A stretch of DNA of 64,000 bases, taken from NCBI GenBank assembly GCA_041666845.1, contig JBAYGC010000007.1, positions 6,080-70,079 of the forward strand. Reading direction: 5' to 3'. The DNA is from Patescibacteria group bacterium. GTDB lineage: Bacteria; Patescibacteriota; Patescibacteriia; UM-FILTER-42-10. The position numbers and the translations under genes are program-made. Below, in pieces: positions 24,610-64,000 of this stretch. Position 1 is the first letter of the stretch. Each line of letters begins with the position of its first letter. Below the pieces are notes generated by a model that worked only from the letters and a program-made list of their open reading frames with translations, did not search any database and had not been told where the DNA came from.

Positions 24610-24666
24610 TCATATCTATATAAGAATGGGGAATTTATTCAAGTATTTTTAACATTGATCCGTGTC

Positions 24667-24740: not shown

Positions 24741-24799
24741 AGCAAACATGGATCAATATTTGGCGTCTAATTAAACTATAGAAACAATATAATATACAG

Positions 24800-24874
24800 T
24801 GGTGCCCCCGGCAGGAATCGAACCTACATTTAAAGCTTAGGAGTCTCTCGTTCTATCCATTGAACTACGGGGGC
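24800..24874 (-). tRNA. tRNA-Arg (anticodon CCU)
   Basis: acceptor GCCCCCG/CGGGGGC, D-arm GTTC AATGGAT(A) GAAC, anticodon loop CUCCUAA (U33, A37), T-loop TTCGATT, CCA encoded; one A-G mismatch at base of anticodon stem. Confidence 0.7.
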
Positions 24875-29067: not shown

Positions 29068-29159
29068 CTTTTTGGTGGAAAAGATTGTTGATAAAGGATG
29101 TAGATAATTTGTTTAGAAGTCAGAAGTATTTCTTCATTTAAACTGGTGCACAGTACACT

Positions 29160-29278
29160 CATCTACTTATCCAAAACAAAGTGTTAATAAAAACTTCTTA
29201 AAACAAAAGAGAAAGTAAAGAATCACGATCGTTATCCACTTATTAACATTATTACTACTATAATTAATATAATATACT
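29160..29278. promoter_or_regulatory. dnaA-dnaN intergenic region with DnaA boxes and AT-rich DUE-like tract
   Basis: TTATCCAAA (29167-29175), TTATCCACT (29232-29240), then ATTATTACTACTATAATTAATATAATATACT. Confidence 0.45.
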
Positions 29279-37790: not shown

Positions 37791-37822
37791 GGTCTCTTGA
37801 TTGAATCAGGAAGATTATCCCA

Positions 37823-39391: not shown

Positions 39392-39400
39392 AAGTGTTGG

Positions 39401-42251: not shown

Positions 42252-42262
42252 GGTAATTATTT

Positions 42263-43732: not shown

Positions 43733-43747
43733 ATTAAATTTTAATTA

Positions 43748-45711: not shown

Positions 45712-45723
45712 TTTGCTTCTTGT

Positions 45724-46752: not shown

Positions 46753-46765
46753 AATTACTTGGCTT

Positions 46766-48145: not shown

Positions 48146-48156
48146 TATTTTTTCGT

Positions 48157-49380: not shown

Positions 49381-50864
49381 TCCTTGTTAACTAAATAGAG
49401 TTGTTTATTTTTAATAGCCTTCTTATATAACAATTCATATTTCTTTGCCGGGATCTTCCAAGAAAAACTTAACTGCATACTTTTCTTAATTAATTCAATC
49501 CACTCTTCGCGGTGTTTATGATTTTCAATTGCGCGGGTAATGGCGACCAGTAGGTCGCGTGAATCATAAGTCTTGAAAGTGAATCCGTTACCTTTTTGGG
49601 TACGCGGGTTATAGTTGGTAATAGTATCGGCCAGACCGCCGGTAGCTCTGACAATCGGAATTGATCCGTAACGGAGGCTAATCATTTGGCCTAATCCACA
49701 AGGTTCAAACCGGGATGGCATTAAAAACATGTCGGAGCCGGCATAAACCTTTGTGGCATGCTGGCTGTTGAACTGCAAGTGTGCGGCAACTTTCTTTGGG
49801 TACTTTCGGATCAGTTTTTTAAAAAAGGATTCATACTTTTTCTCGCCACCGCCCAAAATTACAACTTGAACATCCTGTCGCATTAACGGGTCCATGATGT
49901 CAAAAATCAAATCAAAACCCTTTTGTTCTGTAATACGCGAGACTACGCCGATCAGAGGAATTTTCGGGTCTTCCGGTAGTTGAAACATTTTTTGCAGATG
50001 CAGCTTATTCTTTGTTTTTAAATGCAAGGAATTAAAATCATAATTTTTGTAAAGTCCCGGATCGGTGGCCGGATTGAAATCATTATAGTCAATCCCGTTG
50101 ACGATGCCGAAAAGATTTTCCTTACGGTTCAAAAGAATCCGATGTAATGCCTGGCCGTATTTTTTGGTCATAATCTCCTGGGCGTACTGTTCGGAAACGG
50201 TGTTGATGATATCCGCATTCACAATTCCTCTTTTTGCGTAATTAATATTTTCAATTGCACCTTTTTCCTTAAAAAGAGGGAGCTTGGTATTACCGTCATC
50301 TTTTTCTCTGGGTTTCAGTTCCCACCAGTTTTTACCCATCTGGAAGGCCAGATTATGAATGGTAAATAACGAACCAGTTTGTTTAAACAGCGGATCATCC
50401 GCAAACCGGGTGCGTAGCAGGAATGGGATTAATCCGGTATGCCATTCATGTGCCTGAATCACATCCGGCCGAAAATTGAGGAACTTTAACAATTCAAAAA
50501 CGGCGACGTTAAAAAAATAAAATCGGAGGTTTTCCGTCTTAGAACCATAAACTTTTTTATGTGAGGAGAAAAAACGCGGGTGGTCAATAAAATATACCGG
50601 CACGCCGGTTGAGAGGGAGCTTTTCCAAAAATCCGCCTTGATGGTTGTCGATTTGTCGATGTATACCGGCACATCCTTCTGAAGCAGTTCCAGCTTGAAT
50701 TTTTTGTCCTGAATCACTCCGTGCAATGGTGTAACGATAATCACATCATGGTTCAGCTTGCGCAAAGCTTTTGGTAAAGAGCGCGCGACATCCGCCAGAC
50801 CGCCGGTTTTGGAGAACGGATCGACCTCTGAAGAGACGCTGACTATTTTGAGTGAGTGCTTCAT
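49377..50864 (-). CDS. Glycogen synthase-like GT5/GT4 glycosyltransferase (second GlgA paralog)
   Basis: 495 aa; KTGGLADVARSLPKAL N-terminus; 4-nt overlap with GH57. Confidence 0.8.
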   Translation of the reverse strand: MKHSLKIVSVSSEVDPFSKTGGLADVARSLPKALRKLNHDVIIVTPLHGVIQDKKFKLELLQKDVPVYIDKSTTIKADFWKSSLSTGVPVYFIDHPRFFSSHKKVYGSKTENLRFYFFNVAVFELLKFLNFRPDVIQAHEWHTGLIPFLLRTRFADDPLFKQTGSLFTIHNLAFQMGKNWWELKPREKDDGNTKLPLFKEKGAIENINYAKRGIVNADIINTVSEQYAQEIMTKKYGQALHRILLNRKENLFGIVNGIDYNDFNPATDPGLYKNYDFNSLHLKTKNKLHLQKMFQLPEDPKIPLIGVVSRITEQKGFDLIFDIMDPLMRQDVQVVILGGGEKKYESFFKKLIRKYPKKVAAHLQFNSQHATKVYAGSDMFLMPSRFEPCGLGQMISLRYGSIPIVRATGGLADTITNYNPRTQKGNGFTFKTYDSRDLLVAITRAIENHKHREEWIELIKKSMQLSFSWKIPAKKYELLYKKAIKNKQLYLVNKE

Positions 50865-50866
50865 AT

Positions 50867-51364
50867 TTATAAATAATTATTTTTTGATACGGCGGAACAG
50901 ACAGCGATAGCTAGTGCATCCGCAGTATCGTCGGGCTTTGGGACAGTTTTCAACTTCAGAATGATTTTGATCATTTTTTGAATCTGTGCTTTTTCCGCCC
51001 GGCCATAACCGCAAATTGTTTGTTTCACTTGGAGTGGGGTGAATTCATGTACTGGTACTTTCGATTGCTCGGCAGCTAAGAGGATTACGCCCCTTGCTTG
51101 ACTAACTGCCAGAACGGTCTTGGCATTTTTAAAGAAAAACAGTTCTTCAACCGAAACAACATCCGGTTTAAATTTTCTAATTATTTTCTGTAGCTCCTTA
51201 TGAATAATCGCTAACCTTTTTTCTAGTGGGAGACTTTTGTCAGTTTCAATGTAACCGTAATCTTTTGCGACCAACTTATCATGAATTCCTTCTACTACGC
51301 CCCAACCGACTAACGCAAATCCGGGGTCGACACCAAGAATGGTGACTGGCTTTTTAATATTCAT
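50867..51364 (-). CDS. ruvC: Crossover junction endodeoxyribonuclease RuvC
   Basis: 165 aa; ILGVDPG...GWGV, catalytic Asp/Glu pattern. Confidence 0.9.
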   Translation of the reverse strand: MNIKKPVTILGVDPGFALVGWGVVEGIHDKLVAKDYGYIETDKSLPLEKRLAIIHKELQKIIRKFKPDVVSVEELFFFKNAKTVLAVSQARGVILLAAEQSKVPVHEFTPLQVKQTICGYGRAEKAQIQKMIKIILKLKTVPKPDDTADALAIAVCSAVSKNNYL

Positions 51365-52079
51365 AATTTGAATAAATATTGGTTACCTCGTCGTTATTCT
51401 CCAACTCTTCCAGTAAACCGGTTATTTTTTCTGGATCGGATACATCGGATTTAGTCAGAATAGTCTTGGCAACCGGGTCGACACTGGCATATTCGACTGT
51501 ATACCCCTTCTCAATTAAGGACTTGTTGATACTTTCCAGGCTTTCCGGCGTGGTGTAAATGGTAAAGCCATCAGATTCCTCTTTAATATCCTCAGCCCCC
51601 AAGTCGATAAGCTCCAATTCGACTGCTTCTTTCTGGCTGTTTTCAGGAGCAGTGACCAGTAAAACACCCTTTCTTTCAAACATCCAGCTGACACTGCCAT
51701 TTTCCGCTAAACGGCCGTTTTTTTTGCTAAGAATAGCCCTAATTACCGGTGCAGTGCGGTTTTTATTATCGGTGAATGATTCGATTAATATTGCTACACC
51801 ATCAGGTCCGAACCCTTCATAGACCACTTCATCAATTTTTCCTTCAGAACCCTCGCCCGTGCCTCTCTTTATTGCCCTTTCGATGTTTTCTTTGGGCATA
51901 TTAGCCTGTTTTGCCTTGTCAATTGTGAGACGCAATTTAAAGTTCGTATCAGGATCTCCACCCCCTTCGCGGGCTGCCAGAGAGATGGTATTCGCTATTT
52001 TAGTAAAAATTGTGCCTTTTTTGGCATCGGTAACGCCTTTTGCTCTTTTAATTGTTGACCATTTGGAATGTCCGGACAT
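51354..52079 (-). CDS. yebC: YebC/PmpR family DNA-binding transcriptional regulator
   Basis: 241 aa from internal ATG (MSGHSKWSTIKRAKG canonical N-terminus); track ORF extended to 52127. Confidence 0.85.
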   Translation of the reverse strand: MSGHSKWSTIKRAKGVTDAKKGTIFTKIANTISLAAREGGGDPDTNFKLRLTIDKAKQANMPKENIERAIKRGTGEGSEGKIDEVVYEGFGPDGVAILIESFTDNKNRTAPVIRAILSKKNGRLAENGSVSWMFERKGVLLVTAPENSQKEAVELELIDLGAEDIKEESDGFTIYTTPESLESINKSLIEKGYTVEYASVDPVAKTILTKSDVSDPEKITGLLEELENNDEVTNIYSNYEY

Positions 52080-52169
52080 AAAAAATAATATTATTAAATA
52101 TTTGATAGTACCTTTATAATATAGCAAAAAAACGGGCTAAAGTCAATGTTAATTAAAATCATATTTTGC

Positions 52170-52198
52170 TTGTAAGTTGAATAAATCCCTGTTATAGT
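52170..52198 (+). promoter_or_regulatory. Candidate promoter for pgi/pmi (TTGTAA-17-TATAGT)
   Basis: TTGTAA 52170-52175, 17-nt spacer, TATAGT 52193-52198, about 25 nt upstream of ATG. Confidence 0.45.
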
Positions 52199-52223
52199 GG
52201 ATGCACATTAAACTGACGCGAGT

Positions 52224-53294
52224 ATGAATCAACTGGATGACCAAAAAAAGATCGAAGCTAGGGATACGGGGCATGTTTTAGAGACGATTTCTTTACTACC
52301 GAAGCAAATTCAGCAGACATGGGAAGATGTTCAGAATGTCACAATACCCAAATCATACCGTTCAGTACAAAATATTGTGGTAAATGGCATGGGTGGCTCA
52401 GGATTGGGCGCTCATATTTTGTTTTCGCTTTTTTATGACCAACTGCCGGTGCCTTTACGCGTGGTACATAGTTATACCATGCCGGCCTACGTCAATAAAA
52501 AGACACTTTATGTGCTGTCCAGTTATTCGGGGACGACTGAGGAGCCGCTTTCGACCGCCAAAGAGGCATTGAAACGAGGCGCCAAAGTAATTGGGATAAC
52601 AACCGGGGGTGAAGTTAAAGATTTTTGTCTGAAAAACAATTTGCCATGCTTTTTATTTGACCCAGTTTATAATCCGTCCAACCAGCCGCGGATGGGTGTT
52701 GGATATTCTGTGTTTGGGATATTGGGGTTGCTTAAACGCTGCGGAATAATCGATCTTGATGAAAGAGATGTTAATAGAGTAATAACTCACCTCAACCTGA
52801 TGATTCGAAAGTTTTCGGCCAATATTACAACAGCTAAAAATCCTGCCAAACGAATCGCCGAAGAACTGCATGGCACAATCCCGATTTGTGTTGCAGCGGA
52901 ATTTCTGACCGGAAATGTGCATACGCTTACTAATCAGTTAAATGAAAACAGCAAGAATTTTTCCGCGTACTTTTTACTTTCGGAACTGAATCATCATTTA
53001 TTGGAAGGATTGGCGGCGCCGAAGATTGTACCGCAGGCTCTGCGATTTCTATTTATTGAATCGGCATTGTATCATCCGCGCAATAAGGTAAGATTTCCGA
53101 TTACAAAAAAAATAGTAAAAAAGAATAAGGTTGAATTTTCTTCATATCAGGCCGAAGGGAAAACAAAATTACTCCAATCTTTTGAAGTGTTATTGTTCGG
53201 AAGCTACCTTAGCTACTATTTGGCGTATTTGAATCATGTTGATCCGGTTAAAATCCCGTGGGTTGATTATTTCAAGAGAGAACTGAAGAAATAA
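52224..53294 (+). CDS. Bifunctional phosphoglucose/phosphomannose isomerase (SIS domain, archaeal-type PGI/PMI)
   Basis: 356 aa; SIS nucleotide-binding GMGGSG...; two SIS-like halves. Confidence 0.7.
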   Translation: MNQLDDQKKIEARDTGHVLETISLLPKQIQQTWEDVQNVTIPKSYRSVQNIVVNGMGGSGLGAHILFSLFYDQLPVPLRVVHSYTMPAYVNKKTLYVLSSYSGTTEEPLSTAKEALKRGAKVIGITTGGEVKDFCLKNNLPCFLFDPVYNPSNQPRMGVGYSVFGILGLLKRCGIIDLDERDVNRVITHLNLMIRKFSANITTAKNPAKRIAEELHGTIPICVAAEFLTGNVHTLTNQLNENSKNFSAYFLLSELNHHLLEGLAAPKIVPQALRFLFIESALYHPRNKVRFPITKKIVKKNKVEFSSYQAEGKTKLLQSFEVLLFGSYLSYYLAYLNHVDPVKIPWVDYFKRELKK

Positions 53295-53330
53295 TATAAT
53301 AATCGTTTTCCGCCCTCATGCCTTGGAAAA

Positions 53331-53370
53331 GATTCTTATTCCCATGCTTGATAAGAATCAATTCTTTTAT
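53331..53370 (+). terminator. Hairpin + T-run after pgi/pmi (GATTCTTAT ... ATAAGAATC, then AATTCTTTTAT)
   Basis: 9-bp perfect stem 53331-53339/53351-53359, 11-nt loop. Confidence 0.4.
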
Positions 53371-53398
53371 AAGGTGCGGGGGCGTTTGGATTAAAATA

Positions 53399-55018
53399 AT
53401 GAAGGACAGTTTGAAAAAAATTATTAATCATATTACTAAAAGTAATTTCCCGTATACTTATTTGGTAATTTTTACTATTGCATTCGGAATTTTCTTTTAT
53501 ATCCAGTATACGCCGGCCTTTCCGGATCCCGATTCCTTTTACCACATGAAAATGGCCCTGCTGATCAGGGATGGCAATCTGGGCCAGGGTTTTCCCTGGC
53601 TCTCGGACTATACTATTCTAGGCAATGCATATACTGACCAGCATTTGCTTTATCATGTATTTCTCATTCCTTTTGTCACTTTGTTTACACCGGCGATCGG
53701 AATAAAAATCGCAACTGTTTTTTTGGGTGCGACATTAATAACAACTTTTTATTGGTTGCTGCGAAAAGAAAAGATTAGATTTGCCTGGTTTTACAGCTTA
53801 TTATTGCTATTTGTGGAACCATTTACTTTTCGGATCAGCCTGGCCAAAGCGCCCTCAGTGTCCATAATATTTTTACTGCTAGTGCTATGGTGTCTTTTCC
53901 GTTACCGGATGAAACTTTTATTTATTTTATCGACGATCTTTGTTTGGGCATATGGCGGATTTTTATTGACCGTAGTATTTGCCGGACTTTATGGGGTGGT
54001 TAATACCCTTTTTGATTTAAGAAAAAATAAAGTAACTGGATTATTAAAACACTATTTTGGGCATGAAAAATCCTGGGTGAAAAAAGTATTGACTGGGAAA
54101 GAGTTAGGTATGGTTCTGGTCAGTGTCGCGGGTATAATGGTCGGTTTGGTGATCAATCCGTATTTCCCGAATAACCTGTCATATTACTGGGCGCAACTGG
54201 TTCAAATCGGGATTGTAAATTATCAGAATATAATCGGGGTAGGTGGTGAATGGTATCCGTATTCAGTCACTGAGCTGGTACCGAATACAGTGTTTCTTTT
54301 TTTAATTTTATTGGCAGCGTTTGTAATCTTTTTCGTTACAATCAAAAAACAAAACAGCAAATCGGTCACGCTTTTGATTCTGACTGTTTTCTTTTTGGCT
54401 TTAACTTTGAAATCACGCCGGTATGTGGAATATTTTGTACCGTTCAGTATGCTATTTAGCGCGTTTGCTTTAAGTCCATTTTTGGCGAAGGTAAGTGTTA
54501 CTGGGATGTTAAAAAAAATACCTTCTTTTTACAACAGTCGGAAGATAATTTTTACCATTCTATTGGTTTATTTTGTGGTAACAATTCCAACAATTGCAAT
54601 TCGCGATCTTAAACAGGAAAGAAATAGTTTTAAGAATGGAATTCCTTATAATAAATTTGAATCGGCCAGCAATTGGCTAGAGAATAATACCCCCGAAGGC
54701 TCTATTGTACTCCATAGCGACTGGGATGAGTTCCCGATTTTGTTCTATCACAACTCACACAATCACTACATTGTAGGTCTGGATCCGACCTTTATGTATA
54801 TCCATAATGAAGATTTATACTGGAAATGGGTGAACATAACCATTGGTAAGGAAAGTAGCGCTTTGTATGATATAATTACCAAAGATTTTAACAATGCAAC
54901 AGTGTTTCTGGAAAAGGATCACACCGCAATGGATCTGAATTTCCAGCAGGATTCTCATTTTAAGCTAGTATATGAGGATGCTGAAGCTAAAATTTATCAA
55001 ATATCCGATAATCAATAA
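53399..55018 (+). CDS. Polytopic membrane protein, GT-C-fold glycosyltransferase-like (YfhO/ArnT/PMT-like)
   Basis: about 540 aa from ATG 53399 (track start 53318 precedes terminator hairpin); more than 10 predicted TM segments followed by soluble C-terminal domain. Confidence 0.45.
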   Translation: MKDSLKKIINHITKSNFPYTYLVIFTIAFGIFFYIQYTPAFPDPDSFYHMKMALLIRDGNLGQGFPWLSDYTILGNAYTDQHLLYHVFLIPFVTLFTPAIGIKIATVFLGATLITTFYWLLRKEKIRFAWFYSLLLLFVEPFTFRISLAKAPSVSIIFLLLVLWCLFRYRMKLLFILSTIFVWAYGGFLLTVVFAGLYGVVNTLFDLRKNKVTGLLKHYFGHEKSWVKKVLTGKELGMVLVSVAGIMVGLVINPYFPNNLSYYWAQLVQIGIVNYQNIIGVGGEWYPYSVTELVPNTVFLFLILLAAFVIFFVTIKKQNSKSVTLLILTVFFLALTLKSRRYVEYFVPFSMLFSAFALSPFLAKVSVTGMLKKIPSFYNSRKIIFTILLVYFVVTIPTIAIRDLKQERNSFKNGIPYNKFESASNWLENNTPEGSIVLHSDWDEFPILFYHNSHNHYIVGLDPTFMYIHNEDLYWKWVNITIGKESSALYDIITKDFNNATVFLEKDHTAMDLNFQQDSHFKLVYEDAEAKIYQISDNQ

Positions 55019-55662
55019 TGAGCGAGATTAGCAAGGAGCAATTAGACGAACAGCATCGGAGCGTTCCGCCGGATTATTACGACCAAGGAATAAAAAAGAA
55101 TATTTTCCAGTGGATCTGGCATAAAGGAAGGACCAATATTTTACCGGAGGCACTGGCGGGGGTTGGCCACAAAGTGCTTGATGTCGGCTGTCATGGCGGT
55201 TTTTTTACCAATGAAATTGCAAAAATTATTGGTAACGATATATTAGGGGTTGATATTTCTGAGAGCGCAATTAATTATGCAAAAAATAAATATCCGGAAT
55301 TGAGTTTTGTCACCGCTGATATAGGAAAAAAATTTGACCTGCCGGACAATACTTTTAATACCGTGACAGCGTTTGACGTGGTTGAACATATTCCGAATTT
55401 GAACTTTGTCTCTCAGGAAATAAACAGGGTATTGAAACCTGGTGGCGTGTTTGTGATGGGAATACCCAGAGAAAACATGCTGTTTAAAGCGGTTTGGTAT
55501 TTCTGGACCAAAAGCAAGGGGAAGGTCTGGCACGATGTCCATGTCCACGAATTTTCTGAGAGCAATCTGAAGAAATATTTCGAAGCGAACGGATTTAAGA
55601 AAATATTCGACAAGAAAATTCATCTTGGCATGTATTGGGTAATCAAATATCAAAAGATTTAA
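55018..55662 (+). CDS. Class I SAM-dependent methyltransferase
   Basis: 214 aa; VLDVGCHGGFFT motif I; start overlaps previous stop (ATGA). Confidence 0.7.
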   Translation: MSEISKEQLDEQHRSVPPDYYDQGIKKNIFQWIWHKGRTNILPEALAGVGHKVLDVGCHGGFFTNEIAKIIGNDILGVDISESAINYAKNKYPELSFVTADIGKKFDLPDNTFNTVTAFDVVEHIPNLNFVSQEINRVLKPGGVFVMGIPRENMLFKAVWYFWTKSKGKVWHDVHVHEFSESNLKKYFEANGFKKIFDKKIHLGMYWVIKYQKI

Positions 55663-55666
55663 GTAT

Positions 55667-56974
55667 ATGAAAAAGAGCATATCATTGACCGGAATAATAT
55701 TGTTCCTACTTGTGACGATCCGACTGGCTACCACCGAATATGATTCCAGTTTTGGGCTGGTTTTTACTTACTCGGTATCGTTTATTATTCTTTTCTCCTA
55801 TTTTTTATTGGACATTATACCTCGAGTCAAGGATGATATTATCAAATCAATGAAGGTTGTTCTGTTGATTTTGTTGATGATGATTTTAATTGTCATTCCT
55901 GTTGTATCAAATATGTATAACCGGGTCGAGGGCGACCCGCGAGCGCTTTATCATGACGGAATTGTCCAGACAGAGGAGGCAATCAAATTTTTGTTTGCTG
56001 GTAAGAATTTCTACACTGAGGATTATACCAACACTCCGGTCGCGGACTGGAGTGAAGGCAAAATATCGGAGCTGATCAGCAGGGAAACTATCGTAAACCC
56101 CGCTATCTACCACAATATTTACTTACCTTTTTATATTTTAGTATCAGCGCCGTTTTATTGGGTTAGTCATATGATTTTTGACTGGTACGACCAAAGAATA
56201 ATTTTGTTATTGGCATTGGCGGGAGTAATATGGCTACTGTTTAAAAAGGGTGGGATGAGCGAAAAGACATTATTTGTAACAGTACTATTTGCATTAAACC
56301 CCATGTTCTTAAGGTTTTTTATTGAGGGAAGAAACGATATTTTTACGATATTTTTAATTACTTTTTCCGTTTATTTATTGTCAAAGAAGAAGTTATTATT
56401 GTCATCAATTCCTTTTGCCTTGGCCTGTGTCAGCAAGCATACCGCCTGGCTTCTGCTTCCTTTTTATTGGTGGTTTGTATACTTTCAGGTATCCGATCAG
56501 TCCAAAAAAATCACGGACAATATTAAAACAACCTTGAAGAAAATCTACCCGATTTTCATAATCGGGGCAGTATTCATTGTACCGTTTTTAGTTTGGGATT
56601 TTGGTGCTTTCTGGGAAGACGTCTTTCTTTATCCTAGCGGAAAGTTAGTAACCAGTTATCCAATCACCGGATACGGCTTTTCCCAATTGATGCTGATGGC
56701 GAAAATTGGTGTTAAGACTATTCATGATTATTACCCGTTTTGGATTCTGCAATTAATCGTTTCCGCTCCCTTGCTGTTCTTTCTGTATCGCTATCAAAAA
56801 AGAAACAAAACAGTCAGCGCGATGCTGGTAAGCTACGGTATATTTATTTTTGTCTTCTGGTTGTTCTCCAGATTTTTTAATGACAATTATATCACTTACA
56901 TATTCAGCATTTTAATTATTGCGTATTTTTTTAACCAGGACGAGTCTAACCCAATCATTAAAGGAATATCATAA
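55667..56974 (+). CDS. Polytopic membrane protein, GT-C-like (DUF2029/GT87-like)
   Basis: 435 aa; multiple TM; acidic loop near N-terminus (RVEGDPRALYHDG). Confidence 0.4.
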   Translation: MKKSISLTGIILFLLVTIRLATTEYDSSFGLVFTYSVSFIILFSYFLLDIIPRVKDDIIKSMKVVLLILLMMILIVIPVVSNMYNRVEGDPRALYHDGIVQTEEAIKFLFAGKNFYTEDYTNTPVADWSEGKISELISRETIVNPAIYHNIYLPFYILVSAPFYWVSHMIFDWYDQRIILLLALAGVIWLLFKKGGMSEKTLFVTVLFALNPMFLRFFIEGRNDIFTIFLITFSVYLLSKKKLLLSSIPFALACVSKHTAWLLLPFYWWFVYFQVSDQSKKITDNIKTTLKKIYPIFIIGAVFIVPFLVWDFGAFWEDVFLYPSGKLVTSYPITGYGFSQLMLMAKIGVKTIHDYYPFWILQLIVSAPLLFFLYRYQKRNKTVSAMLVSYGIFIFVFWLFSRFFNDNYITYIFSILIIAYFFNQDESNPIIKGIS

Positions 56975-57651
56975 TGAAACTTTCAATTATCATACCTGTT
57001 TATAACGAAAAAAATACTTTCAACAAGATTATTGAAAAAGTGAAAGCGGTTCCTTATGAAAAAGAAATTATTGTTGTTGATGACGGTTCTGAGGACGGCA
57101 CCCGGGAAATTCTAAAAAACTTCAGTGATCCCGAAGTGCAAATATATTATCACGAAAAAAATTATGGCAAAGGCCGGGCAATCAGAACCGGGTTTGAACA
57201 CATAACGGGGGATGTTGTTTTGATCCAGGATGCTGATCTGGAATATGACCCGCAGGAATACGGCATCCTTCTGAAGCCGATCCAGGAAGGAAAGGCGGAA
57301 GTTGTCTATGGTTCTAGGTTTCGAGGAGAGGGTAAGGCAATGCTTTTTTGGCATGCGATCGGTAATAAATTTCTCACTTTCATGACGAATTTGCTTTATG
57401 ATACAACAATCACTGATATGGAAACATGCTATAAAGTTTTTAAAGCGGATGTGATTAAGAGTCTAAAGCTGACTGCGGATCGTTTCAACATTGAACCGGA
57501 GATCACGGCAAAAGTTCTGAAAAAAGGATACCGAATTTATGAAGTCCCGATTTCCTATACGGGCAGAGAATATGATGAAGGTAAGAAAATTACTTGGCGC
57601 GACGGCTTTATTGCCTTGTGGACACTCATTAAATATCGTTTCGTAAAATAA
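56974..57651 (+). CDS. GT2 polyprenyl-phosphate glycosyltransferase (Dpm1/GtrB-like)
   Basis: 225 aa; LSIIIPVYNE, VVDDGSEDGT, DADL (DxD) motifs. Confidence 0.8.
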   Translation: MKLSIIIPVYNEKNTFNKIIEKVKAVPYEKEIIVVDDGSEDGTREILKNFSDPEVQIYYHEKNYGKGRAIRTGFEHITGDVVLIQDADLEYDPQEYGILLKPIQEGKAEVVYGSRFRGEGKAMLFWHAIGNKFLTFMTNLLYDTTITDMETCYKVFKADVIKSLKLTADRFNIEPEITAKVLKKGYRIYEVPISYTGREYDEGKKITWRDGFIALWTLIKYRFVK

Positions 57652-57684
57652 AAATTTCTCTAATTTCTGTTTTCTGATTGAGAT

Positions 57685-58977
57685 ATGATAAGTTTACCGA
57701 GCAAAGCAAGAACAATATTGTTATTTGTGCTAATATTTTTGGTTTATATCAGTTCCGTTCGTTTTCTTGGCACAATTGATGGGGCGCCGACCAGAATGTT
57801 GCCGATCAGCATATTGAAGGAGGGGGATTTTGATCTGGATGAATATGTGCCGGCAAGGCAGGATGATTTTGTTTGGTTTGTACTGATCGAAACCACTGAC
57901 GGGCATTTTATTTCCAAATATCCGGTATTATCATCAATATTAGCTCTGCCTTTTTATGCCATACCACATTTTTTGGGTATAGGATTCACCACCGCAATTA
58001 TTATTACTTTGTCTAAAATATCAGCAGCCTTTATCACTGCCATATCCGCAATATTATTATTGTTCATTTTTCGGAAATATCTTTCAGAGAAATGGTCGGT
58101 ATTTTTGACTATTGCCTATGCTTTTGGTACTAGTAGCTGGACAGTGTCAAGCCAAGATTTGTGGCAACACGGCGCCAGCCAGCTATTTCTGATTTTGACC
58201 GTCTATTTATTGTTGAAACCTAAAAAAAGTGATCTGAGATTTTTATTGATCGGAGTTGTTATCGGCTTGTCAATTGCCGCACGTTATTTAAATGTCATTT
58301 TTGGGGCAGTATATTTAATCTTTATATTATATAAGTACCGGACAAAAATATTTTCTACATTGCTCGGGGTGCTTGTTCCGCTGTCCTTGGTTTTAATCTA
58401 TCAATCATATTATTTGGATAATCCATTCCAAACGGGGTACAGTTGTAATGCATATAGTAACCGTTCCTTTGCCTGCATTGAAGGTTGGTACAGTGAATTC
58501 TGGGATGGGTTCGGCGGGCTATTAATCAGTCCAAGCCGGGGCTTGTTTATTTTTACTCCATTCCTGATATTTAGTTTGATTGGAATGTGGTTGATTTGGA
58601 AGCGAAATAAAAAAGAAGTGCGAGATTATAATCTGCTTTTCAAGTTTACTTCGATTGGCGTACTAATATTTGTTGTAGTTATGAGTAAATGGTGGGCGTG
58701 GTATGGTGGGGTTACATACGGTCCAAGAATGTTGGCTGATATTACTCCACTTATGATGTTATTTTTTATTCCCTTATTAAGAAGTGAATTGTTCAAAAGA
58801 AAAGTTGTCCCGGCTATTTTTATTTTGTTGGTAGTGTTTTCTATTATTAACCAATTCACTGGTATTATTTTCTGGGATGGTTCGTGGCAAAAAGCAGACA
58901 CTCTGTCTGCTGATCATGCATGGCTCTGGGATTGGGGGAATAGTCAATTAATTTATTATATAAAAATGTTTTTTTGA
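57685..58977 (+). CDS. Polytopic membrane protein, GT-C-fold glycosyltransferase-like
   Basis: 430 aa, about 12 TM; overlaps next gene by 4 nt. Confidence 0.45.
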   Translation: MISLPSKARTILLFVLIFLVYISSVRFLGTIDGAPTRMLPISILKEGDFDLDEYVPARQDDFVWFVLIETTDGHFISKYPVLSSILALPFYAIPHFLGIGFTTAIIITLSKISAAFITAISAILLLFIFRKYLSEKWSVFLTIAYAFGTSSWTVSSQDLWQHGASQLFLILTVYLLLKPKKSDLRFLLIGVVIGLSIAARYLNVIFGAVYLIFILYKYRTKIFSTLLGVLVPLSLVLIYQSYYLDNPFQTGYSCNAYSNRSFACIEGWYSEFWDGFGGLLISPSRGLFIFTPFLIFSLIGMWLIWKRNKKEVRDYNLLFKFTSIGVLIFVVVMSKWWAWYGGVTYGPRMLADITPLMMLFFIPLLRSELFKRKVVPAIFILLVVFSIINQFTGIIFWDGSWQKADTLSADHAWLWDWGNSQLIYYIKMFF

Positions 58978-60671
58978 TGATAAACGCTAAAATATTTTCA
59001 AACATAAAAAAACATCTATTAATAATCACGTTATTTGTTGTTTTAACTGTGGTGATGACTTATCCGTGGGTTAACCATATGGATACGTGGGTGCATGACG
59101 GGGCGGATTCTTATTTTATCGCGTGGAACCTGGCATGGGACGTAAATTCATTTCAAAATGATGTCGGTAATATATTTAATGCCAATATTTTTTATCCGCA
59201 TGATAATACCCTGGCCTATTCCGAGCATCTGATCGGCACGGCATTATTGGTGTGGCCGATTCTGGCTCTAACTCATAACCCGATTCTGGCATATAACATT
59301 GTGACCTTCATATTCTTTGTTCTGGGTGCCTATTGCATGTATTTGTTTATGTTCAAACTTACACGTAATTTACCCGTTTCGATTATCAGTGCCATAATTT
59401 TCGGGTTTAACCCGTATCGAGTAATTCATTTCAGCCAGATTCATTTGCAGGTAATCTTTTTCTTCCCCTTGATTTTATTGATCTTACATCGGTTATTTGA
59501 ATCCAAAAAACACCGGGATTTTATTTTTTTGATTTTAGCCTACGTCACGTTGGGTTATATGAGTATGCACTATCTGTTAATGATGGCTGTTGTTACAATA
59601 GTGTTCTCAGTTTTCTATTTTGCCGCCATTGATAAAAAATTGCCGGAAAAGAAATTCATTATTAAGCTGGGGTTAGCCTTTTTTCTGGTTATTCTAGCTA
59701 TTTTGCCGGTGTATTACCCGTATTTTTTTGCACATGATGAAAACGGTTACAGCCGTTCCTATAGCATGATTACGACTTACTCACCGACTGTCATGGATTA
59801 TCTAGCTTTCTCTCCACTAATTACAAAAATTGTCGGTTTTCCCAATACGATAGAGAGAGTGCTGTATACCGGGTTTACAGTAGTAATATTGTTTTTTGTC
59901 AGTTTATATTATCTGATCAAGCGGCGCATTGTAGATCAGAAAACAATTGAGATTCTTTTGCTCTATCTGCTGATCGGTGCGGTTTGCGTATTATTGTCAT
60001 TTGGTATTTTGGTGCGGTTTACGACGGACGGTGGCGGGGTGGTCGGTCCGTATATATTTTTCTATAAATTAATTCCCGGGTTTGACGGTCTGCGCGCTTT
60101 GGGGAGATTTTTTGTTGTTGTTCTGCTTTCAATCAGCGTTGTTATTGGTCTGGGGTTAAACCAGATGTTGAGAAGAATCAAAAAGAGATTTATTTATGGT
60201 TCGGTCGTTATTTTGGTTGCCTCATTAATAATGGTCGAATATCTCTGGGTACCGCCATTTCAGCCGGTGGAATACCGTGAGGCGTTGATTGATAATAAAA
60301 TTCCGGAAGTGTATCATTGGCTCGCGGAGAAGTCGGATGACTCGGTGATTCTTGAATTACCTTTGGATGTTAACTTGAGAAAAAGCACCGAATATATGTA
60401 TTTATCCGTATATCACTGGAAAAAAATGATCAACGGGTACAGCGGGTTTTTCCCAGAAGATTATATCAAGCTGGAAAAAATGATTGCGGACAATTTTACC
60501 GGTGATGAAACTCAAAATGAAATATCGAAAGCGGGCGTGAAATATATAATCGTACATTTTGGCGTCCAATCAAAATTTACTACTCAAATAACACCCGAAG
60601 GATTAGACCAACTGCCAAAACTCAGACTGATAGAAACTTTCGGGACCGACTACGTTTATGAAGTAATATAG
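58974..60671 (+). CDS. Polytopic membrane protein (GT-C/YfhO-like), tandem paralog 1
   Basis: 565 aa; strong similarity to 60677-62365 product (e.g. NIFNANIFYPHDNTLAYSEHLIG vs DIFNANIFYPNKNTLAYSENLIG). Confidence 0.45.
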   Translation: MMINAKIFSNIKKHLLIITLFVVLTVVMTYPWVNHMDTWVHDGADSYFIAWNLAWDVNSFQNDVGNIFNANIFYPHDNTLAYSEHLIGTALLVWPILALTHNPILAYNIVTFIFFVLGAYCMYLFMFKLTRNLPVSIISAIIFGFNPYRVIHFSQIHLQVIFFFPLILLILHRLFESKKHRDFIFLILAYVTLGYMSMHYLLMMAVVTIVFSVFYFAAIDKKLPEKKFIIKLGLAFFLVILAILPVYYPYFFAHDENGYSRSYSMITTYSPTVMDYLAFSPLITKIVGFPNTIERVLYTGFTVVILFFVSLYYLIKRRIVDQKTIEILLLYLLIGAVCVLLSFGILVRFTTDGGGVVGPYIFFYKLIPGFDGLRALGRFFVVVLLSISVVIGLGLNQMLRRIKKRFIYGSVVILVASLIMVEYLWVPPFQPVEYREALIDNKIPEVYHWLAEKSDDSVILELPLDVNLRKSTEYMYLSVYHWKKMINGYSGFFPEDYIKLEKMIADNFTGDETQNEISKAGVKYIIVHFGVQSKFTTQITPEGLDQLPKLRLIETFGTDYVYEVI

Positions 60672-60676
60672 CAAAT

Positions 60677-62365
60677 ATGGGTAATCATCCATTGAAGAGA
60701 AATAGTCTGGCGGTGGTAATATTTTTATTGCTGACATTTTTGATGACTTTCCCATGGGGTGCCCGGCTGGCAACGTCGGTACAGGCCAGCAGTGATTCCT
60801 ATTTCAATATATGGACAATTGCCTGGGACGTTCATATGTTTCAGGAAAATCCTACCGATATATTTAATGCTAATATATTCTATCCGAATAAAAACACACT
60901 GGCCTATTCTGAAAATCTGATCGGATCTGCATTATTTGCCTGGCCGGTTATTGCTTTGAGCGGTAATCCAGTTTTGGCTTACAATATAATTATCTTTATA
61001 TTTTTTGTTCTAGCCGGTTACTGCATGTATCTGTTGGCTTATTATTTTACAAAAAATTTTCCGGTCTCTATCTTAGGCGGTATCATCTACGGCTTTAATG
61101 CATATATGTTTTTGCATTTTAATCTGTTGCATATCATGGCAGTATTTTTTTTCCCTTTGATTTTTTTGATTATGCATAAGCTGGTTGAATCGGAGAAAAG
61201 GAAGTACTTTGCCTATTTTATCGTTACTTTCACACTGCTTGGCTATATGAGTATGCATTTTTTTATGATGCTATTATTGTTTATCCCGGTTTATTTATTG
61301 GTATATTACGGGGTGATAAAAAGAAAAATGCCAAGCAAAAAAATCATCGTCAATTTTGTTATTTCCTTTATTATATCTACTATCATTATTCTGCCTGTTT
61401 TTTATCCCTATCTCACATTACGCACCAACATTGAATATGACCGTTCATATGCCATGGTCAACCAGTTTTCACCGACAGTCACTGACTATCTTACATTTTC
61501 ACCAATGCTTATGGGTCTATTTGAATTACCGAAAAATATTTTTAAGACATACATTTATTCCGGCTTTACCGTATTATTTTTGGTCATTTTCAGTATAATA
61601 ATGCTGATAAAAAAGTATTACAGACAGAAGGAAATTATTAATATATCCTCCCTTTATATTATTATTGGTTTTGTTGCCTTCATTATGTCTTTTGGCGTAG
61701 TGATCAGATTTTCCGAAAACGACCCGGGTGTTGTCGGGCCGTTTATGTTACTTTTTGAATTTGTTCCGGGATTTTCCAGTCTCAGGGCGCTTGGCAGGTT
61801 TTCGATCGTAATACTGCTCTCGATGAGTGTGATCATAACTATAATTTTGAATCAGTATATGACCAGGTTCAAAAAAAAGTTTGTGTATGTCGGGATGCTG
61901 CTGATCATCAGTTGTCTGGTTATCCTGGAATATATGATTATCCCACCGTTGAAGCCGGTTAATTTGGAAACGGTCAAAACCGGTTCAAATATACCGGAAG
62001 TTTATCGCTGGCTATCGGAGCAAAAAGACGATACAGTCATACTCGAGTTGCCGATTTGGGTAAATGGTATGGAAGAAACTGCAAAGTATCAGTATTATTC
62101 GGCATTCCATTGGCACAGGCAAATGCACGGGTATAGTGGTTATTATCCGCCCGAATACCGAAAAATATTTATCAAGCCATTAAAAGATTTGCTGAATGAT
62201 GATACTATTAAAGAAATCCGGGCAGTTGGAGTTGATTACATAATATTGCACACCGGTGCTTCGATGGAATTCGCAAAAGAATTAAGAGAAGCGGATGTCA
62301 AAAACAATCAGAATCTTCAGTTAATAGAAATATTTGGTAGCGATTGGGTGTATCAAATAAAATAA
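60677..62365 (+). CDS. Polytopic membrane protein (GT-C/YfhO-like), tandem paralog 2
   Basis: 562 aa; same architecture as preceding gene. Confidence 0.45.
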   Translation: MGNHPLKRNSLAVVIFLLLTFLMTFPWGARLATSVQASSDSYFNIWTIAWDVHMFQENPTDIFNANIFYPNKNTLAYSENLIGSALFAWPVIALSGNPVLAYNIIIFIFFVLAGYCMYLLAYYFTKNFPVSILGGIIYGFNAYMFLHFNLLHIMAVFFFPLIFLIMHKLVESEKRKYFAYFIVTFTLLGYMSMHFFMMLLLFIPVYLLVYYGVIKRKMPSKKIIVNFVISFIISTIIILPVFYPYLTLRTNIEYDRSYAMVNQFSPTVTDYLTFSPMLMGLFELPKNIFKTYIYSGFTVLFLVIFSIIMLIKKYYRQKEIINISSLYIIIGFVAFIMSFGVVIRFSENDPGVVGPFMLLFEFVPGFSSLRALGRFSIVILLSMSVIITIILNQYMTRFKKKFVYVGMLLIISCLVILEYMIIPPLKPVNLETVKTGSNIPEVYRWLSEQKDDTVILELPIWVNGMEETAKYQYYSAFHWHRQMHGYSGYYPPEYRKIFIKPLKDLLNDDTIKEIRAVGVDYIILHTGASMEFAKELREADVKNNQNLQLIEIFGSDWVYQIK

Positions 62366-62391
62366 TATAATATAATCACCATTATAAAGAC

Positions 62392-63096
62392 ATGAAATCG
62401 GTAATAATCGTCCCAACATATAATGAAAAAGACAATATAGAAATATTGATCAGAAGAATTGCCGATTTATCAATTACTGATCTTTTTGTTTGCGTTGTCG
62501 ATGATAACTCTCCCGATGGAACCGGGAAAATCGTTGATCAATTGGCCGTTCAGTTTCCCTTTGTGACGGTCATCCACAGGGATCAGAAACTAGGTCTAGG
62601 GAGCGCATATGTGGCCGGGTTCAAGAATGCTTTGCAGGCTGGTGCAGATTTTGTTTTTGAAATGGATTCGGATTTGTCCCACAATCCTGATGACATACCC
62701 AGGTTCTTAGTGGAAGCAAGAAATGGAAATGATATTGTCATCGGTTCGCGCCGGATTCCGAAGGGTGGCGTTGAGAATTGGGGGATTATAAGAAATCTAA
62801 TGAGCAAAGGAGCGATGTGGTTCTCCAGGGTGATGCTGAGTTTAAAAACTCACGACGTTACTTCCGGGTACCGATGTTATGCACGCAGAGTAATTGAAGC
62901 GATTGATTGGAACCAAATAAAAGGAAATGGCTATTCCTTTCAAGAAGAGACAATTTATTTGTGCGAAAAAAAAGGTTTTAAAGTAAAAGAAATACCGATC
63001 GTATTCAAGGATCGTACTTATGGGCATTCCAAACTTTCAAAGAAAGAAATAGTAAATTTTTTCATTACAATTGTAAAACTTCGTTTAAAAAAATAG
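62392..63096 (+). CDS. GT2 dolichyl/polyprenyl-phosphate mannose(hexose) synthase (Dpm1/Ppm1-like)
   Basis: 234 aa; IIVPTYNE, VVDDNSPDGT, DSDLSH (DxD), typical DPM synthase length. Confidence 0.8.
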   Translation: MKSVIIVPTYNEKDNIEILIRRIADLSITDLFVCVVDDNSPDGTGKIVDQLAVQFPFVTVIHRDQKLGLGSAYVAGFKNALQAGADFVFEMDSDLSHNPDDIPRFLVEARNGNDIVIGSRRIPKGGVENWGIIRNLMSKGAMWFSRVMLSLKTHDVTSGYRCYARRVIEAIDWNQIKGNGYSFQEETIYLCEKKGFKVKEIPIVFKDRTYGHSKLSKKEIVNFFITIVKLRLKK

Positions 63097-63099
63097 TCA

Positions 63100-64000
63100 A
63101 TGACTGTCAGAAACAGAATGATAATTTTAGGTGTTGTGTCTAGTCTCTTGTATGCTGTACTCGCTTTCATCGCGTATCATTATCAGACAAGCGCAACCAC
63201 TCCTTGGGGGGGCTCTTTTAAGGCAATTCTATTGGTAATAAATATGTTGTTGGTTGTTGTCTACTGGTTTGCCTTCATTTCAGTAAAGTCGGTCAATGGT
63301 AAAAGTATTATAAAGATTATTTTCCTGTTTTCAGCCGTGTTTAGCGTAATTATGATTTTTACTCCGCCAATCGGATCAGCGGATGTTTATAACTATGCAT
63401 ATCGGGCGCGGATTAATACAGTATATGATGAAAACCCTTATATTGTGGCAACCGGAGAGCATTCGGGTGATATGTTCTATGACTTTTCGCCAAAAGAATG
63501 GAACTATCTGACCATGCAGTATGGACCTTTCTGGACGTCGGTATCTATCTTATTTAGTAATATTACAAAGAACAGTTTTTTTTGGAATGTTTTTATTTAT
63601 AAATTACTGGCGCTAGTTTCTTTTTTTGGAGTTGCATTTCTGTTGAGAAAAATATTGCAAAAATTCAATCCGGGTATGGAAATGAAGGGATTATTTTTAT
63701 ATTTATGGAGCCCGATTATCATATTTGAAGCGATTAATAATGCGCATAATGATATGTTCATGATGTTCGTAGTGGTTTTTGCAATATATTTGTTAATGAA
63801 AAAGTGGTATATTTTGGCAGCAATAATGCTACTGCTTTCAATACTCACGAAGTATATCCCTTTATTAATATTACCTGTATTCGTTTTTTATATCTTTAGA
63901 GACATTCAAGAGACCAGAAAAAAGGTTAATTTTGTATGGGTATCCGGCATTCTGGCGATCATAATTTCAGTAATATTTTATTTGCCATTTTGGGAGGGCA
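63100..64000 (+). CDS. Polytopic membrane protein, GT-C-like (DUF2029/GT87-like), partial (runs off window end)
   Basis: ATG 63100; open frame with no stop to position 64000 (300 codons); multiple hydrophobic segments; not in ORF track because no stop within window. Confidence 0.45.
   Translation, partial: MTVRNRMIILGVVSSLLYAVLAFIAYHYQTSATTPWGGSFKAILLVINMLLVVVYWFAFISVKSVNGKSIIKIIFLFSAVFSVIMIFTPPIGSADVYNYAYRARINTVYDENPYIVATGEHSGDMFYDFSPKEWNYLTMQYGPFWTSVSILFSNITKNSFFWNVFIYKLLALVSFFGVAFLLRKILQKFNPGMEMKGLFLYLWSPIIIFEAINNAHNDMFMMFVVVFAIYLLMKKWYILAAIMLLLSILTKYIPLLILPVFVFYIFRDIQETRKKVNFVWVSGILAIIISVIFYLPFWEG

Follow-up and report, generated by a model that had tools for sequence, protein, structure and literature searches.

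A likely transmembrane glycosylation locus in a variable island bordered by STT3-like proteins in a Patescibacteria bacterium

The closest described counterparts of the locus reported here are the GtrA/GtrB/GtrC, CsbB/GtcA/YfhO and GacI/J/K/L systems, in which a glycosyltransferase family 2 (GT2) enzyme makes a polyprenyl-phosphate sugar and an adjacent GT-C glycosyltransferase of YfhO or PMT_2 type transfers the sugar outside (reviewed in PMC8035078). The same GT-A plus GT-C logic is found at positions 52224–64000 of a stretch of 64,000 nucleotides (the window) of contig JBAYGC010000007.1 from a Patescibacteria group bacterium. We consider it likely that this locus encodes a multi-component transmembrane glycosylation pathway of a Kerfeldbacteria-related member of the group, and that it lies in an island of glycan diversity whose place on the chromosome is conserved. 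The Patescibacteria, or candidate phyla radiation (CPR), make up a large share of bacterial diversity, and those that have been cultivated live attached to host cells. A study of the pilus of Saccharibacteria calls the glycosylation processes of these bacteria ‘unexplored’ (PMC11623550), and in the literature that we searched we found no report on STT3/AglB, GT-C, dolichyl-phosphate or N-glycosylation in Patescibacteria or the CPR.

The listing of open reading frames (ORFs) and their translations place ten tightly packed plus-strand genes in this region, which encode a phosphoglucose/phosphomannose isomerase (PGI/PMI), an S-adenosylmethionine (SAM)-dependent methyltransferase, two GT2 proteins and six polytopic GT-C-type proteins:

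52224–53294, plus strand: PGI/PMI-type SIS protein of the bifunctional type, 356 aa (PF10432, E = 4.7e-32)
53399–55018 (the ORF could begin at 53318), plus strand: TM-A, divergent STT3-superfamily GT-C protein, 539 aa, left border of the island
55018–55662, plus strand: class I SAM-dependent methyltransferase, 214 aa, overlapping TM-A by 1 nt (Methyltransf_31/11/25/23, 1e-17 to 1e-20)
55667–56974, plus strand: GT87-like GT-C protein, 435 aa (PF09594, 2.5e-6, 27.9 bits against a cut-off of 25)
56974–57651, plus strand: GT2a, AglJ/ArnC/GtrB-like polyprenyl-phosphate glycosyl synthase catalytic domain, 225 aa (PF00535, 6.4e-39)
57685–58977, plus strand: PMT_2/LA_3751-like GT-C protein, 430 aa (NF047440, 7.9e-21, below cut-off at 74.4 against 200 bits)
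58977–60671 (ATG start; TTG at 58974 possible), plus strand: D1, YfhO/PTPS_related-like GT-C protein, 564 aa (PF10131, 0.0028)
60677–62365, plus strand: D2, YfhO/PTPS_related-like GT-C protein, 562 aa (PF09586, 9.2e-5, below cut-off)
62392–63096, plus strand: GT2b, DPM1/Ppm1-type polyprenyl-phosphate hexose synthase catalytic domain, 234 aa (PF00535, 2.8e-30)
63100–64000, cut by the window end (full end 64488), plus strand: MptA/MptB-like (GT87-related) GT-C protein, 462 aa in full

As the initial annotation had stated, all ten ORFs are present with overlaps or short gaps between them (−1 to 33 nt). The exception is a gap of 104 nt between the PGI gene and the start at 53399, which an in-frame ATG at 53318 would cut to 23 nt; public gene calls use 53399. 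Stop and start codons overlap by 1 nt at three junctions (55018, 56974 and 58977). The expectation that the locus continues past the window is borne out by public contigs: the GT2b protein is found on three of them, each 100% identical to the window tail across the entire overlap, and NCBI names the products on the identical contigs as hypothetical proteins of ‘Patescibacteria group bacterium’. One of these, contig L001, reaches 9.1 kb past the window end and carries the following genes (window-equivalent coordinates unless stated):

63100–64488, plus strand: the complete MptA/B-like gene, 462 aa
64501–66141, plus strand: TM-F, polytopic, 546 aa
past TM-F on L001, minus strand (convergent): DUF2079 gene (PF09852, 2.7e-66)
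68322–70075 (L001 15931–17684), minus strand: three PF18895 T4SS_pilin genes
right flank on L001, minus strand: SBP, sugar-binding lipoprotein-like
right flank on L001, minus strand: GalU (TIGR01099, 6.6e-110, above cut-off)

Because L001 continues past the window, the co-directional unit can be given as 11 genes, from 52224 to about 66141. The glycosylation neighbourhood in window and contig together holds eight GT-C-like genes.

From the gene structure, family and fold assignments, motifs and synteny described below, we infer every biochemical step of the pathway, its sugars and its acceptor. On the cytoplasmic face, the anchor-less GT2a and GT2b would, as their homology suggests, load sugars (probably hexoses) from nucleotide sugars onto polyprenyl phosphate, and the lipid-linked sugars would be flipped by a flippase encoded outside the locus. 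Outside the membrane, as many as eight GT-C enzymes of at least six families (the STT3-like TM-A and TM-F, the GT87-like, MptA/B-like and PMT_2-like proteins, the YfhO/PTPS-like D1 and D2, and the DUF2079 protein) would add sugars one by one, building a glycan and attaching it to a surface acceptor. A sugar is the probable substrate of the SAM-dependent methyltransferase. Since the genes between the STT3-like borders are swapped among lineages, strains are expected to differ in their glycan.

Both GT2 proteins show homology to characterised lipid-phosphate sugar synthases and have a GT-A domain in which the DxD motif is retained (DAD in GT2a, DSD in GT2b). GT2a, which resembles GtrB, ArnC and PgfS, matches the AglJ model TIGR04182 at 4.8e-41, below its cut-off (141 versus 325 bits), and aligns through its DAD motif with PDB structures of ArnC (9hwj, 1.7e-17) and dolichol-phosphate mannose synthase (DPMS; 5mlz, 1.5e-16). 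GT2b matches 5mlz, the Dol-P-Man synthase of P. furiosus, over residues 1–229 (2.1e-38), and its DSD falls on the DAD of that enzyme. Both proteins end just past the catalytic domain, without the C-terminal helices of GtrB, ArnC and PfDPMS. By crude hydropathy, which was used throughout, GT2a has no hydrophobic segment and GT2b has one, at residues 18–36 at the start of the GT2 domain, which is read here as the buried beta-strand LFVCVVDD and not as a membrane anchor. Neither protein thus has a C-terminal anchor, and in this they resemble the anchor-less DPM1/Ppm1 type. The proposal that the two enzymes make polyprenyl-phosphate-hexose stands for the lipid-phosphate synthase activity that their homology predicts, whereas the sugar is left unassigned because all GT2 NCBIfam equivalog scores are far under their cut-offs (PpgS, for example, at 65 versus 370 bits, in addition to AglJ). 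A hexosamine is possible for GT2b, because its closest NCBIfam model is a GalNAc synthase. Of the nucleotide sugars, only UDP-glucose can be made by an enzyme encoded nearby (GalU). Mannose, the sugar first proposed, is unproven, because GalU is the only nucleotide-sugar enzyme found and no ManB or ManC was found among the larger annotated ORFs of the window and the 9 kb beyond (ORFs of less than about 235 aa in window 1–27 kb were not scanned).

The eight GT-C-like proteins have 8–14 hydrophobic segments each, and the six in the window 8–12. A build of membrane-rich N terminus and periplasmic C-terminal domain, initially ascribed to all six, is seen in three (53399, 58977 and 60677); the other three end 14–35 residues past the last hydrophobic segment. 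Soluble C-terminal domains of about 140 aa occur in TM-A, D1, D2 and TM-F, and one of 310 aa in the DUF2079 protein. At E ≤ 1e-3, Foldseek searches with the AlphaFold2 models of TM-A and D2 returned GT-C enzymes only (STT3, PglB, AglB, DPY19, ArnT and AftA/D). MFS, ABC and GPCR proteins appeared only at E ≥ 0.14 with TM-scores of 0.08–0.17, and a transporter reading was rejected. In agreement with the initial annotation, and with the GT87 match above cut-off and PMT_2 matches among relatives as further support, the GT-C assignment holds for all six window membrane proteins, at differing stringency.

Individual assignments differ in reach. A profile of 22 orthologs of the GT87-like protein, in which D97 in the first loop is invariant, matches GPI mannosyltransferase 1 in the PDB (3.8e-7) and was alone in matching a solved GT-C enzyme; PDB sequence and profile searches with the TM-A, D, PMT_2-like, TM-F and MptA/B-like families gave nothing meaningful. 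The 57685–58977 protein itself has no Pfam match; PMT_2 (PF13231) is recognised in 15 of the 39 relatives aligned with it (best 9.3e-11). The 63100 protein matches TIGR03459 (MptA, 2.9e-14) and NF038066 (MptB, 1.2e-6) far below the cut-offs, an MptA-like match at 5e-12 is also among the GT-C assignments, PF26314 MptA_B_family is on record for the full product, and PF09594 stays below cut-off (21.6–22.7 versus 25); it shares 29% identity over 164 residues with the 55667 protein. D1 and D2 fall below the gathering scores of PTPS_related (16.6 versus 26.4 bits) and YfhO (21.4 versus 28.5 bits), respectively, and relatives of the D family match PTPS_related in 12 of 36 cases and YfhO in 8 of 36. 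The D2 model (pLDDT 89) retrieves STT3, DPY19, AftA, AftD, PglB and ArnT at 5e-8 to 3e-4. The public gene call for D1 uses the ATG. D1 and D2 are tandem paralogs, as first noted, with 44% identity over 556 residues; expansion by duplication describes this one pair, and the rest belongs to six or more distinct GT-C families. About 14 Patescibacteria sequences are close to D1/D2; the next relatives have 25–38% identity, are longer and in several cases carry discoidin domains; the named distant ones come from Anaerolineae, Limnocylindrales, Aminicenantes and one Patescibacteria metagenome-assembled genome (MAG). There are hints that D1/D2 were acquired from outside the phylum.

To place the locus in context, 80 loci from species-representative genomes were fetched with the TM-A profile and their gene content was read by tblastn with the window proteins. 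They are labelled as Kerfeldbacteria, Falkowbacteria, Buchananbacteria and other Patescibacteria, and some otherwise. The common backbone runs RuvC and YebC (minus), PGI and TM-A (plus), a variable segment, TM-F (plus), then DUF2079, two pilins, SBP and GalU (all minus). YebC was found in 63 of the 80 loci, RuvC in 60, PGI in 54, TM-F in 51 and DUF2079 in 38, followed by GT2b-like (35), GT87-like (23), MptA/B-like (16), GT2a-like (12), methyltransferase (11), D family (3) and PMT_2-like (2) genes. The distance from TM-A to the right flank ranges from 10 bp to 8.9 kb in the 47 loci with both flanks captured and is 11.1 kb here, the largest version seen; five genomes have no island genes. The 94 island ORFs of 37 genomes include 19 GT2, 19 GT87, 11 PMT_2, 10 ALG3, 6 methyltransferase and 2 ALG6/8 proteins; anything beyond GT2, GT-C and methyltransferase occurs singly, and GT-B, Wzx/Wzy and phosphoglycosyltransferase families are absent from the 25-family list of these ORFs. 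By this synteny, TM-A and TM-F are the conserved borders of an island between which genes are swapped among lineages. Apart from this window, the whole island occurs only in L004 (TM-A 93% identical), and L007 has it nearly complete, with a single D gene; the full gene set, with D1 and D2 in tandem, is therefore restricted to a small clade.

The PGI/PMI protein, which the initial annotation placed at the head of the locus, is indeed encoded by its first gene and passes PF10432 (111 bits against a cut-off of 24.5) without reaching the NCBIfam equivalogs (NF006425, 1.1e-78, 264.6 versus 471 bits; another, 178 versus 214). The gene adjoins TM-A in the 54 loci that hold it; its membership in the pathway is uncertain, because RuvC and YebC are equally syntenic. 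The initial annotation had recognised neither that the first membrane protein is STT3-like nor that a hypervariable island occupies this conserved chromosomal position. New here are two STT3-derived families (TM-A and TM-F), the finding that they border a variable GT2/GT-C island, and the density of GT-C genes. In the public deposits, many contigs with the typical Patescibacteria backbone (for example, L014, L015, L027, L030 and L048) are named ‘uncultured Gammaproteobacteria bacterium’ (TPA_asm bins) and L055 is named Vicinamibacterales; such labels look wrong for these contigs.

TM-A has no Pfam match at E ≤ 0.01, matches the NCBIfam model TIGR04154 (archaeo_STT3) below threshold (2.1e-12, 46.3 versus 450 bits) and, used as a family profile against PDB sequences, finds no STT3 chain. 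It has more than 1,000 homologs, and all source-named ones are ‘hypothetical protein’ entries of MAGs that are of Patescibacteria lineage, ‘Candidatus Peregrinibacteria’ or unclassified ‘bacterium’; its profile retrieves 3,440 representatives of 50%-identity clusters at E ≤ 1e-3 and 1,434 at E ≤ 1e-30. The AlphaFold2 model (pLDDT 90, pTM 0.90) has a GT-C fold, with about 13 transmembrane helices and a C-terminal periplasmic domain, and its top 18 Foldseek matches in the PDB are STT3, PglB and AglB structures (E from 1e-9 to 4e-7, TMq 0.51–0.66). As a reference we used 60 full-length WWDYGY ORFs from a metagenome scan, 59 of which match PF02516. In hhalign, the TM-A family aligns to this STT3 set at 98.5% probability with E = 2.7e-15 over 422 columns (1e-22 in global mode).

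Several observations weigh against a dedicated pathway with an STT3 relative at its border. The methyltransferase (Methyltransf_11, 2.4e-20; no transmembrane segment) is generic, and its top NCBIfam matches are UbiG/UbiE-type enzymes. No GtrA- or Wzx-type flippase gene occurs in 52224–64000 or the 9 kb beyond, MurJ (37823–39391) being the only flippase-type gene seen, and the locus has no initiating phosphoglycosyltransferase. Of the six GT-C genes in the window, four reach the curated cut-off of no named family. The conserved synteny includes the housekeeping genes RuvC and YebC, which are unrelated, so adjacency alone is weak evidence of common function. The G+C content is 0.37–0.39 at 52001–64000 versus 0.41–0.48 in the flanking housekeeping genes (38001–52000), which could stem from membrane-protein codon content or from a foreign origin of the island; the low regional value may merely reflect the composition of membrane proteins. 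Finally, the STT3-first Foldseek ranking is not specific to TM-A, as the D2 model ranks likewise, and in hhalign each of the four GT-C profiles that were compared matches the STT3 set, with E-values between 9e-9 and 2.7e-15 (TM-F 4.4e-14, D family 6.4e-12 and the PMT_2-like profile of 57685–58977 9e-9). The ranking was therefore dropped as proof of STT3 membership, and the STT3 claim for TM-A rests on motif-level alignment.

Motifs were mapped from hmmsearch and hhalign alignments, and conservation was counted over 135 diverse representatives of the TM-A family:

D45 (DPDSFYH): catalytic Asp of STT3 external loop 1 (EL1, ‘Dpy’), 135 of 135
R145: Arg of the STT3 ‘RTxxGxxDxE’ motif, 135 of 135
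K150: first acidic column of the metal-binding pair of RTxxGxfDxE (EL2), 129 Lys and 6 Arg among 135
position 152: second acidic column, Pro here; in the family Pro 41, Ser 29, Gln 21 and Thr 15
E284 (GGEWYPY): Glu of the EL5 TIXE/SVSE motif (‘SVaE’), 135 of 135
R341: conserved STT3 Arg before ‘P’, 134 of 135
W442 (HSDWDEFP): second W of WWDYG, 132 of 135
D443: D of WWDYG, 107 of 135 (79%)
G-L-D462: downstream STT3 ‘TLxD’, D462 invariant in 135

The SVaE Glu is the sole invariant residue of the 60 STT3 sequences besides WWDYGY. An ‘SVTE’ string in TM-A was rejected as the EL5 motif, since it is unconserved and the aligned invariant Glu is E284. On these alignments TM-A is homologous to STT3 and keeps most of the predicted catalytic landmarks. 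In the WWDYG slot the second W and the D align, and the first W, Y and G are not kept; the metal-binding D-x-D/D-x-E pair of EL2 is absent. As both the acidic pair and the full WWDYG fail, TM-A is not filed as an oligosaccharyltransferase (OST). Since a conserved Lys occupies the site at which STT3 enzymes bind metal through an Asp/Glu pair, catalysis by TM-A is probably independent of divalent metal, and our working guess is that TM-A carries out the transfer to the final acceptor, probably a protein. TM-F is distantly paralogous to TM-A (hhalign 96.6%, 6.9e-10); of the STT3 residues it retains the EL1 Asp, an EL2 D...E pair and the Arg, without the EL5 Glu and WWD. Tandem TM-A duplicates occur in two related genomes (L056 8551–11470 and L076 8548–11383; 33–42% identity to the query), in both of which pilin-like genes on both strands directly follow.

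The initial annotation advised a search for glycoprotein substrates past 64 kb, and the three pilin-like genes that lie there encode candidate acceptors. The proteins have two hydrophobic helices followed by a short tail (median 9 aa), and in the pil1 type a conserved C-terminal ‘TTxNVT’ follows the second helix; pil2 and pil3 have Cys-rich N-terminal or C-terminal extensions. N-x-S/T occurs in the tail of 34 of 63 unique pilin-like homologs versus 20.1 ± 3.0 in within-tail shuffles (0 of 2000 reach 34; the sequences are related and the tails Thr-rich), in the variants NVT, NTT, NAS, NVS, NIT, NAT and NNT. This enrichment points to a conserved motif and not to glycosylation, and the acceptor lead is speculative. 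At TM-A residue 441, the first-W slot of WWDYG, genomes with D have the tail sequon in 21 of 25 cases and those with S in 3 of 12 (naive Fisher 8e-4); we did not accept this covariation as evidence, as the S441 genomes form one clade and may represent a single event. Directly upstream of the first pilin-like gene, at L001 16377–16348 (minus strand), lies a perfect 12/12 sigma-70 consensus (TTGACA, 18 nt, TATAAT), the only such site in 17 kb, which suggests strong expression of that gene. A more specific proposal, to which we give little credence, is that TM-A would be the Patescibacteria’s own STT3-derived, metal-independent glycosyltransferase, and would attach a glycan built wholly on the outer face by swappable GT-Cs from polyprenyl-phosphate sugars to the Asn or a neighbouring Thr of the short, extracellular VirB2-type pilin-like ‘TTxNVT’ tails.

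Among alternatives to the pathway set out above, the one that survives best, although we regard it as doubtful, is a lipoglycan pathway of the mycobacterial lipomannan/lipoarabinomannan (LAM) type. A Ppm1-like synthase would make polyprenyl-phosphate-mannose, PimE/MptC-like GT87 and MptA/MptB-like GT-C enzymes would extend a mannan on a glycolipid and others would branch or cap it, giving a product that is lipid-anchored and not a glycoprotein. Such a pathway would accommodate the above-cut-off GT87 match of 55667–56974, the MptA and MptB models as best named relatives of the 63100 gene, a GT2b that is anchor-less like the catalytic part of Ppm1/DPM1 (DPMS match 2e-38), and the place of GT87 among the commonest island families (19 of 94 ORFs). 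However, the mycobacterial equivalog scores are far below cut-off (52.8 versus 439 and 27.3 versus 40 bits), the MptA/B-like profile matches nothing in the PDB, no PimA/PimB-type GT-B or inositol-lipid genes lie nearby, GDP-mannose genes are missing from the larger annotated ORFs of the window and the 9 kb beyond, and the two conserved STT3-like border genes would be left unexplained.

We judge it unlikely that the locus decorates a cell-wall polymer (teichoic-acid-like or a secondary cell-wall polysaccharide), with each GT2/GT-C pair adding a side-chain sugar as in Firmicutes CsbB/GtcA/YfhO and in GtrABC. The kinship of D1/D2 with YfhO and PTPS_related and of 57685–58977 with PMT_2 fits this well, YfhO and PMT_2 being the two Pfam families given for Gram-positive GT-C components (PMC8035078, Table 2), as does the resemblance of GT2a to GtrB, ArnC and PgfS; Patescibacteria also encode peptidoglycan machinery, and PBP1, MurJ and a Mur ligase are in the window. 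Yet no island genes are rarer than D1/D2 and the PMT_2-like gene (3 and 2 of 80 loci), so that these genes leave the conserved core unexplained. The ratio of eight GT-Cs to two GT2s is also far from the 1:1 pairing usual in such systems, no GtrA/GtcA flippase gene lies in or near the locus, and no TagO/TagF/LtaS-like backbone genes were seen in the annotated regions.

Protein O-mannosylation by a Pmt/GT39-type system that draws on PMI and Dol-P-Man-synthase-like enzymes had been suggested initially and now seems very unlikely. The DPM1-like GT2b, a PGI/PMI-type isomerase at the head of the cluster, and PMT_2 in relatives of 57685–58977 (NCBI name ‘glycosyltransferase family 39 protein’) had pointed that way, and the Thr-rich pilin-like tails could be O-glycosylated. 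But no bona fide GT39 PMT is present: no protein matches PF02366 (PMT), none has the MIR domains of true GT39, and the window’s own PMT_2-like protein, which gets no Pfam match, has counterparts in only 2 of 80 related loci; there is no ManB/ManC among the annotated ORFs, while GalU is conserved at the right flank. Most improbable is that there is no single pathway and that independent GT-C genes with unrelated targets (lipid, peptidoglycan, protein) have gathered at an insertion-tolerant site, for although the unrelated RuvC and YebC are as position-conserved as the glycosylation genes and the island differs freely in gene content and is empty in five genomes, the recurrent families among the 94 island ORFs are nearly all GT2, GT-C or methyltransferase, unlike a neutral insertion site, and the stop/start overlaps and gaps of 3–33 nt inside the island indicate co-transcription and translational coupling.

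Upstream of the locus, yebC and ruvC lie on the minus strand, followed by an alpha-glucan cluster, and the divergent gap between yebC and the PGI gene is marked by one candidate element:

52128–52223, intergenic between yebC (minus) and the PGI gene (plus): contains TGTTATAGT, an extended −10-like element

This interval is a likely start of the plus-strand transcription unit, and the promoter is putative; a consensus scan of the locus for promoters and terminators did not rise above shuffles (78 versus 62.5 ± 8.3; 21 versus 13.7 ± 3.5). The alpha-glucan/glycogen-type cluster (41316–50864, minus strand), which adjoins the glycosylation locus on the opposite strand, comprises two GT5 starch-synthase-like genes, two of glycoside hydrolase family 57 (GH57; one with a UVR motif), a GalT/HIT-like gene, two PHP-domain genes and one APH-type kinase gene. 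At 36993–41341 (minus strand), MurJ, the lipid II flippase, stands between two Peptidase_C39_2-like proteins, one of which, of 646 aa, has three Big_5 Ig-like domains. The window probably spans the chromosomal replication origin, with dnaA/dnaN at 27700–30385 and a minimum of cumulative GC skew and a flip of gene strand near 27–28 kb. Genes for tRNA Ala-GGC, Ala-CGC and Arg-CCT lie at 24230–24874 (minus strand), around which about 22.9–25.9 kb holds no ORF of at least 120 aa and G+C falls to 0.35 at 24–26 kb.

The TM-A family is a stripped-down relative of STT3, and the Lys that appears to replace its metal site is a natural experiment on OST-type catalysis. The island is a chromosomal hot spot with O-antigen-like GT2/GT-C variation, which points to diversifying selection on a surface glycan (for example, by phage, host recognition or predation). 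The pilin-like proteins with their C-terminal N-x-T tail offer a testable candidate substrate nearby. If the protein-glycosylation reading is true, STT3-type chemistry extends to a major bacterial lineage beyond Campylobacterota and Desulfobacterota, from which bacterial PglB is known; if TM-A does act on the pilin-like tails, the result would be a strain-specific glycan on a surface filament or adhesin.

At curated thresholds the locus is, on sequence, a member of none of the compared ALG/OST, Ppm1/PimE/MptA/B and Agl systems, and it resembles each in part. From the Gtr, CsbB and Gac systems it differs in having two GT2 genes for up to eight GT-C genes of at least six families, no GtrA or Wzx flippase in the locus and conserved members that are STT3-like and not YfhO/PMT_2; its GT2s are without the C-terminal membrane anchors of GtrB, CsbB and ArnC. 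Mycobacterial lipomannan/LAM synthesis (Ppm1, PimE, MptA, MptB, MptC) likewise combines an anchor-less Ppm1/DPM1-like synthase with GT87- and MptA/B-type GT-Cs, whereas here the scores are sub-cut-off, PimA/PimB and inositol-lipid genes are missing and the host is not an actinobacterium. A resemblance to the Haloferax volcanii Agl cluster (AglJ, AglD, AglS, AglP, AglF, AglB) is offered as a lead: the AglJ-like GT2a (4.8e-41), the methyltransferase (compare AglP), GalU (AglF model, 3.3e-26), a Dol-P-sugar GT-C (compare AglS) and an archaeal-STT3-like protein have counterparts there, although the scores are below equivalog cut-offs, AglG/I/E-like cytoplasmic steps are absent and the host is bacterial. 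With STT3/AglB/PglB (GT66, PF02516), TM-A shares the fold (Foldseek 1e-9, TM 0.66), full-length profile homology (2.7e-15), the EL1 Asp, EL5 Glu, Arg, second W and D of WWDYG and downstream G-L-D. Unlike them, it fails the Pfam STT3 model, has K150/P for D-x-D/E and D-W-D-E-F for W-W-D-Y-G, and is shorter (539 aa, with a periplasmic domain of about 125 residues, against 575–1289 aa in the 60 STT3 sequences), and no genes for lipid-linked oligosaccharide assembly (PglC/WecA type, GT-B) are nearby. The likeness to N-glycan assembly in the lumen of the eukaryotic endoplasmic reticulum (ER; DPM1, ALG5, ALG3/9/12, ALG6/8/10, STT3) is at clan level only, and cytoplasmic-face assembly genes were not seen at the locus. 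The logic is nevertheless the same, with GT2 Dol-P-hexose synthases feeding a far-side series of GT-C enzymes beside an STT3-type enzyme, and the islands of relatives hold 10 ALG3-like and 2 ALG6/8-like ORFs; if TM-A glycosylates the pilin-like proteins, this locus would be a bacterial counterpart of ER-lumenal ALG/OST logic.

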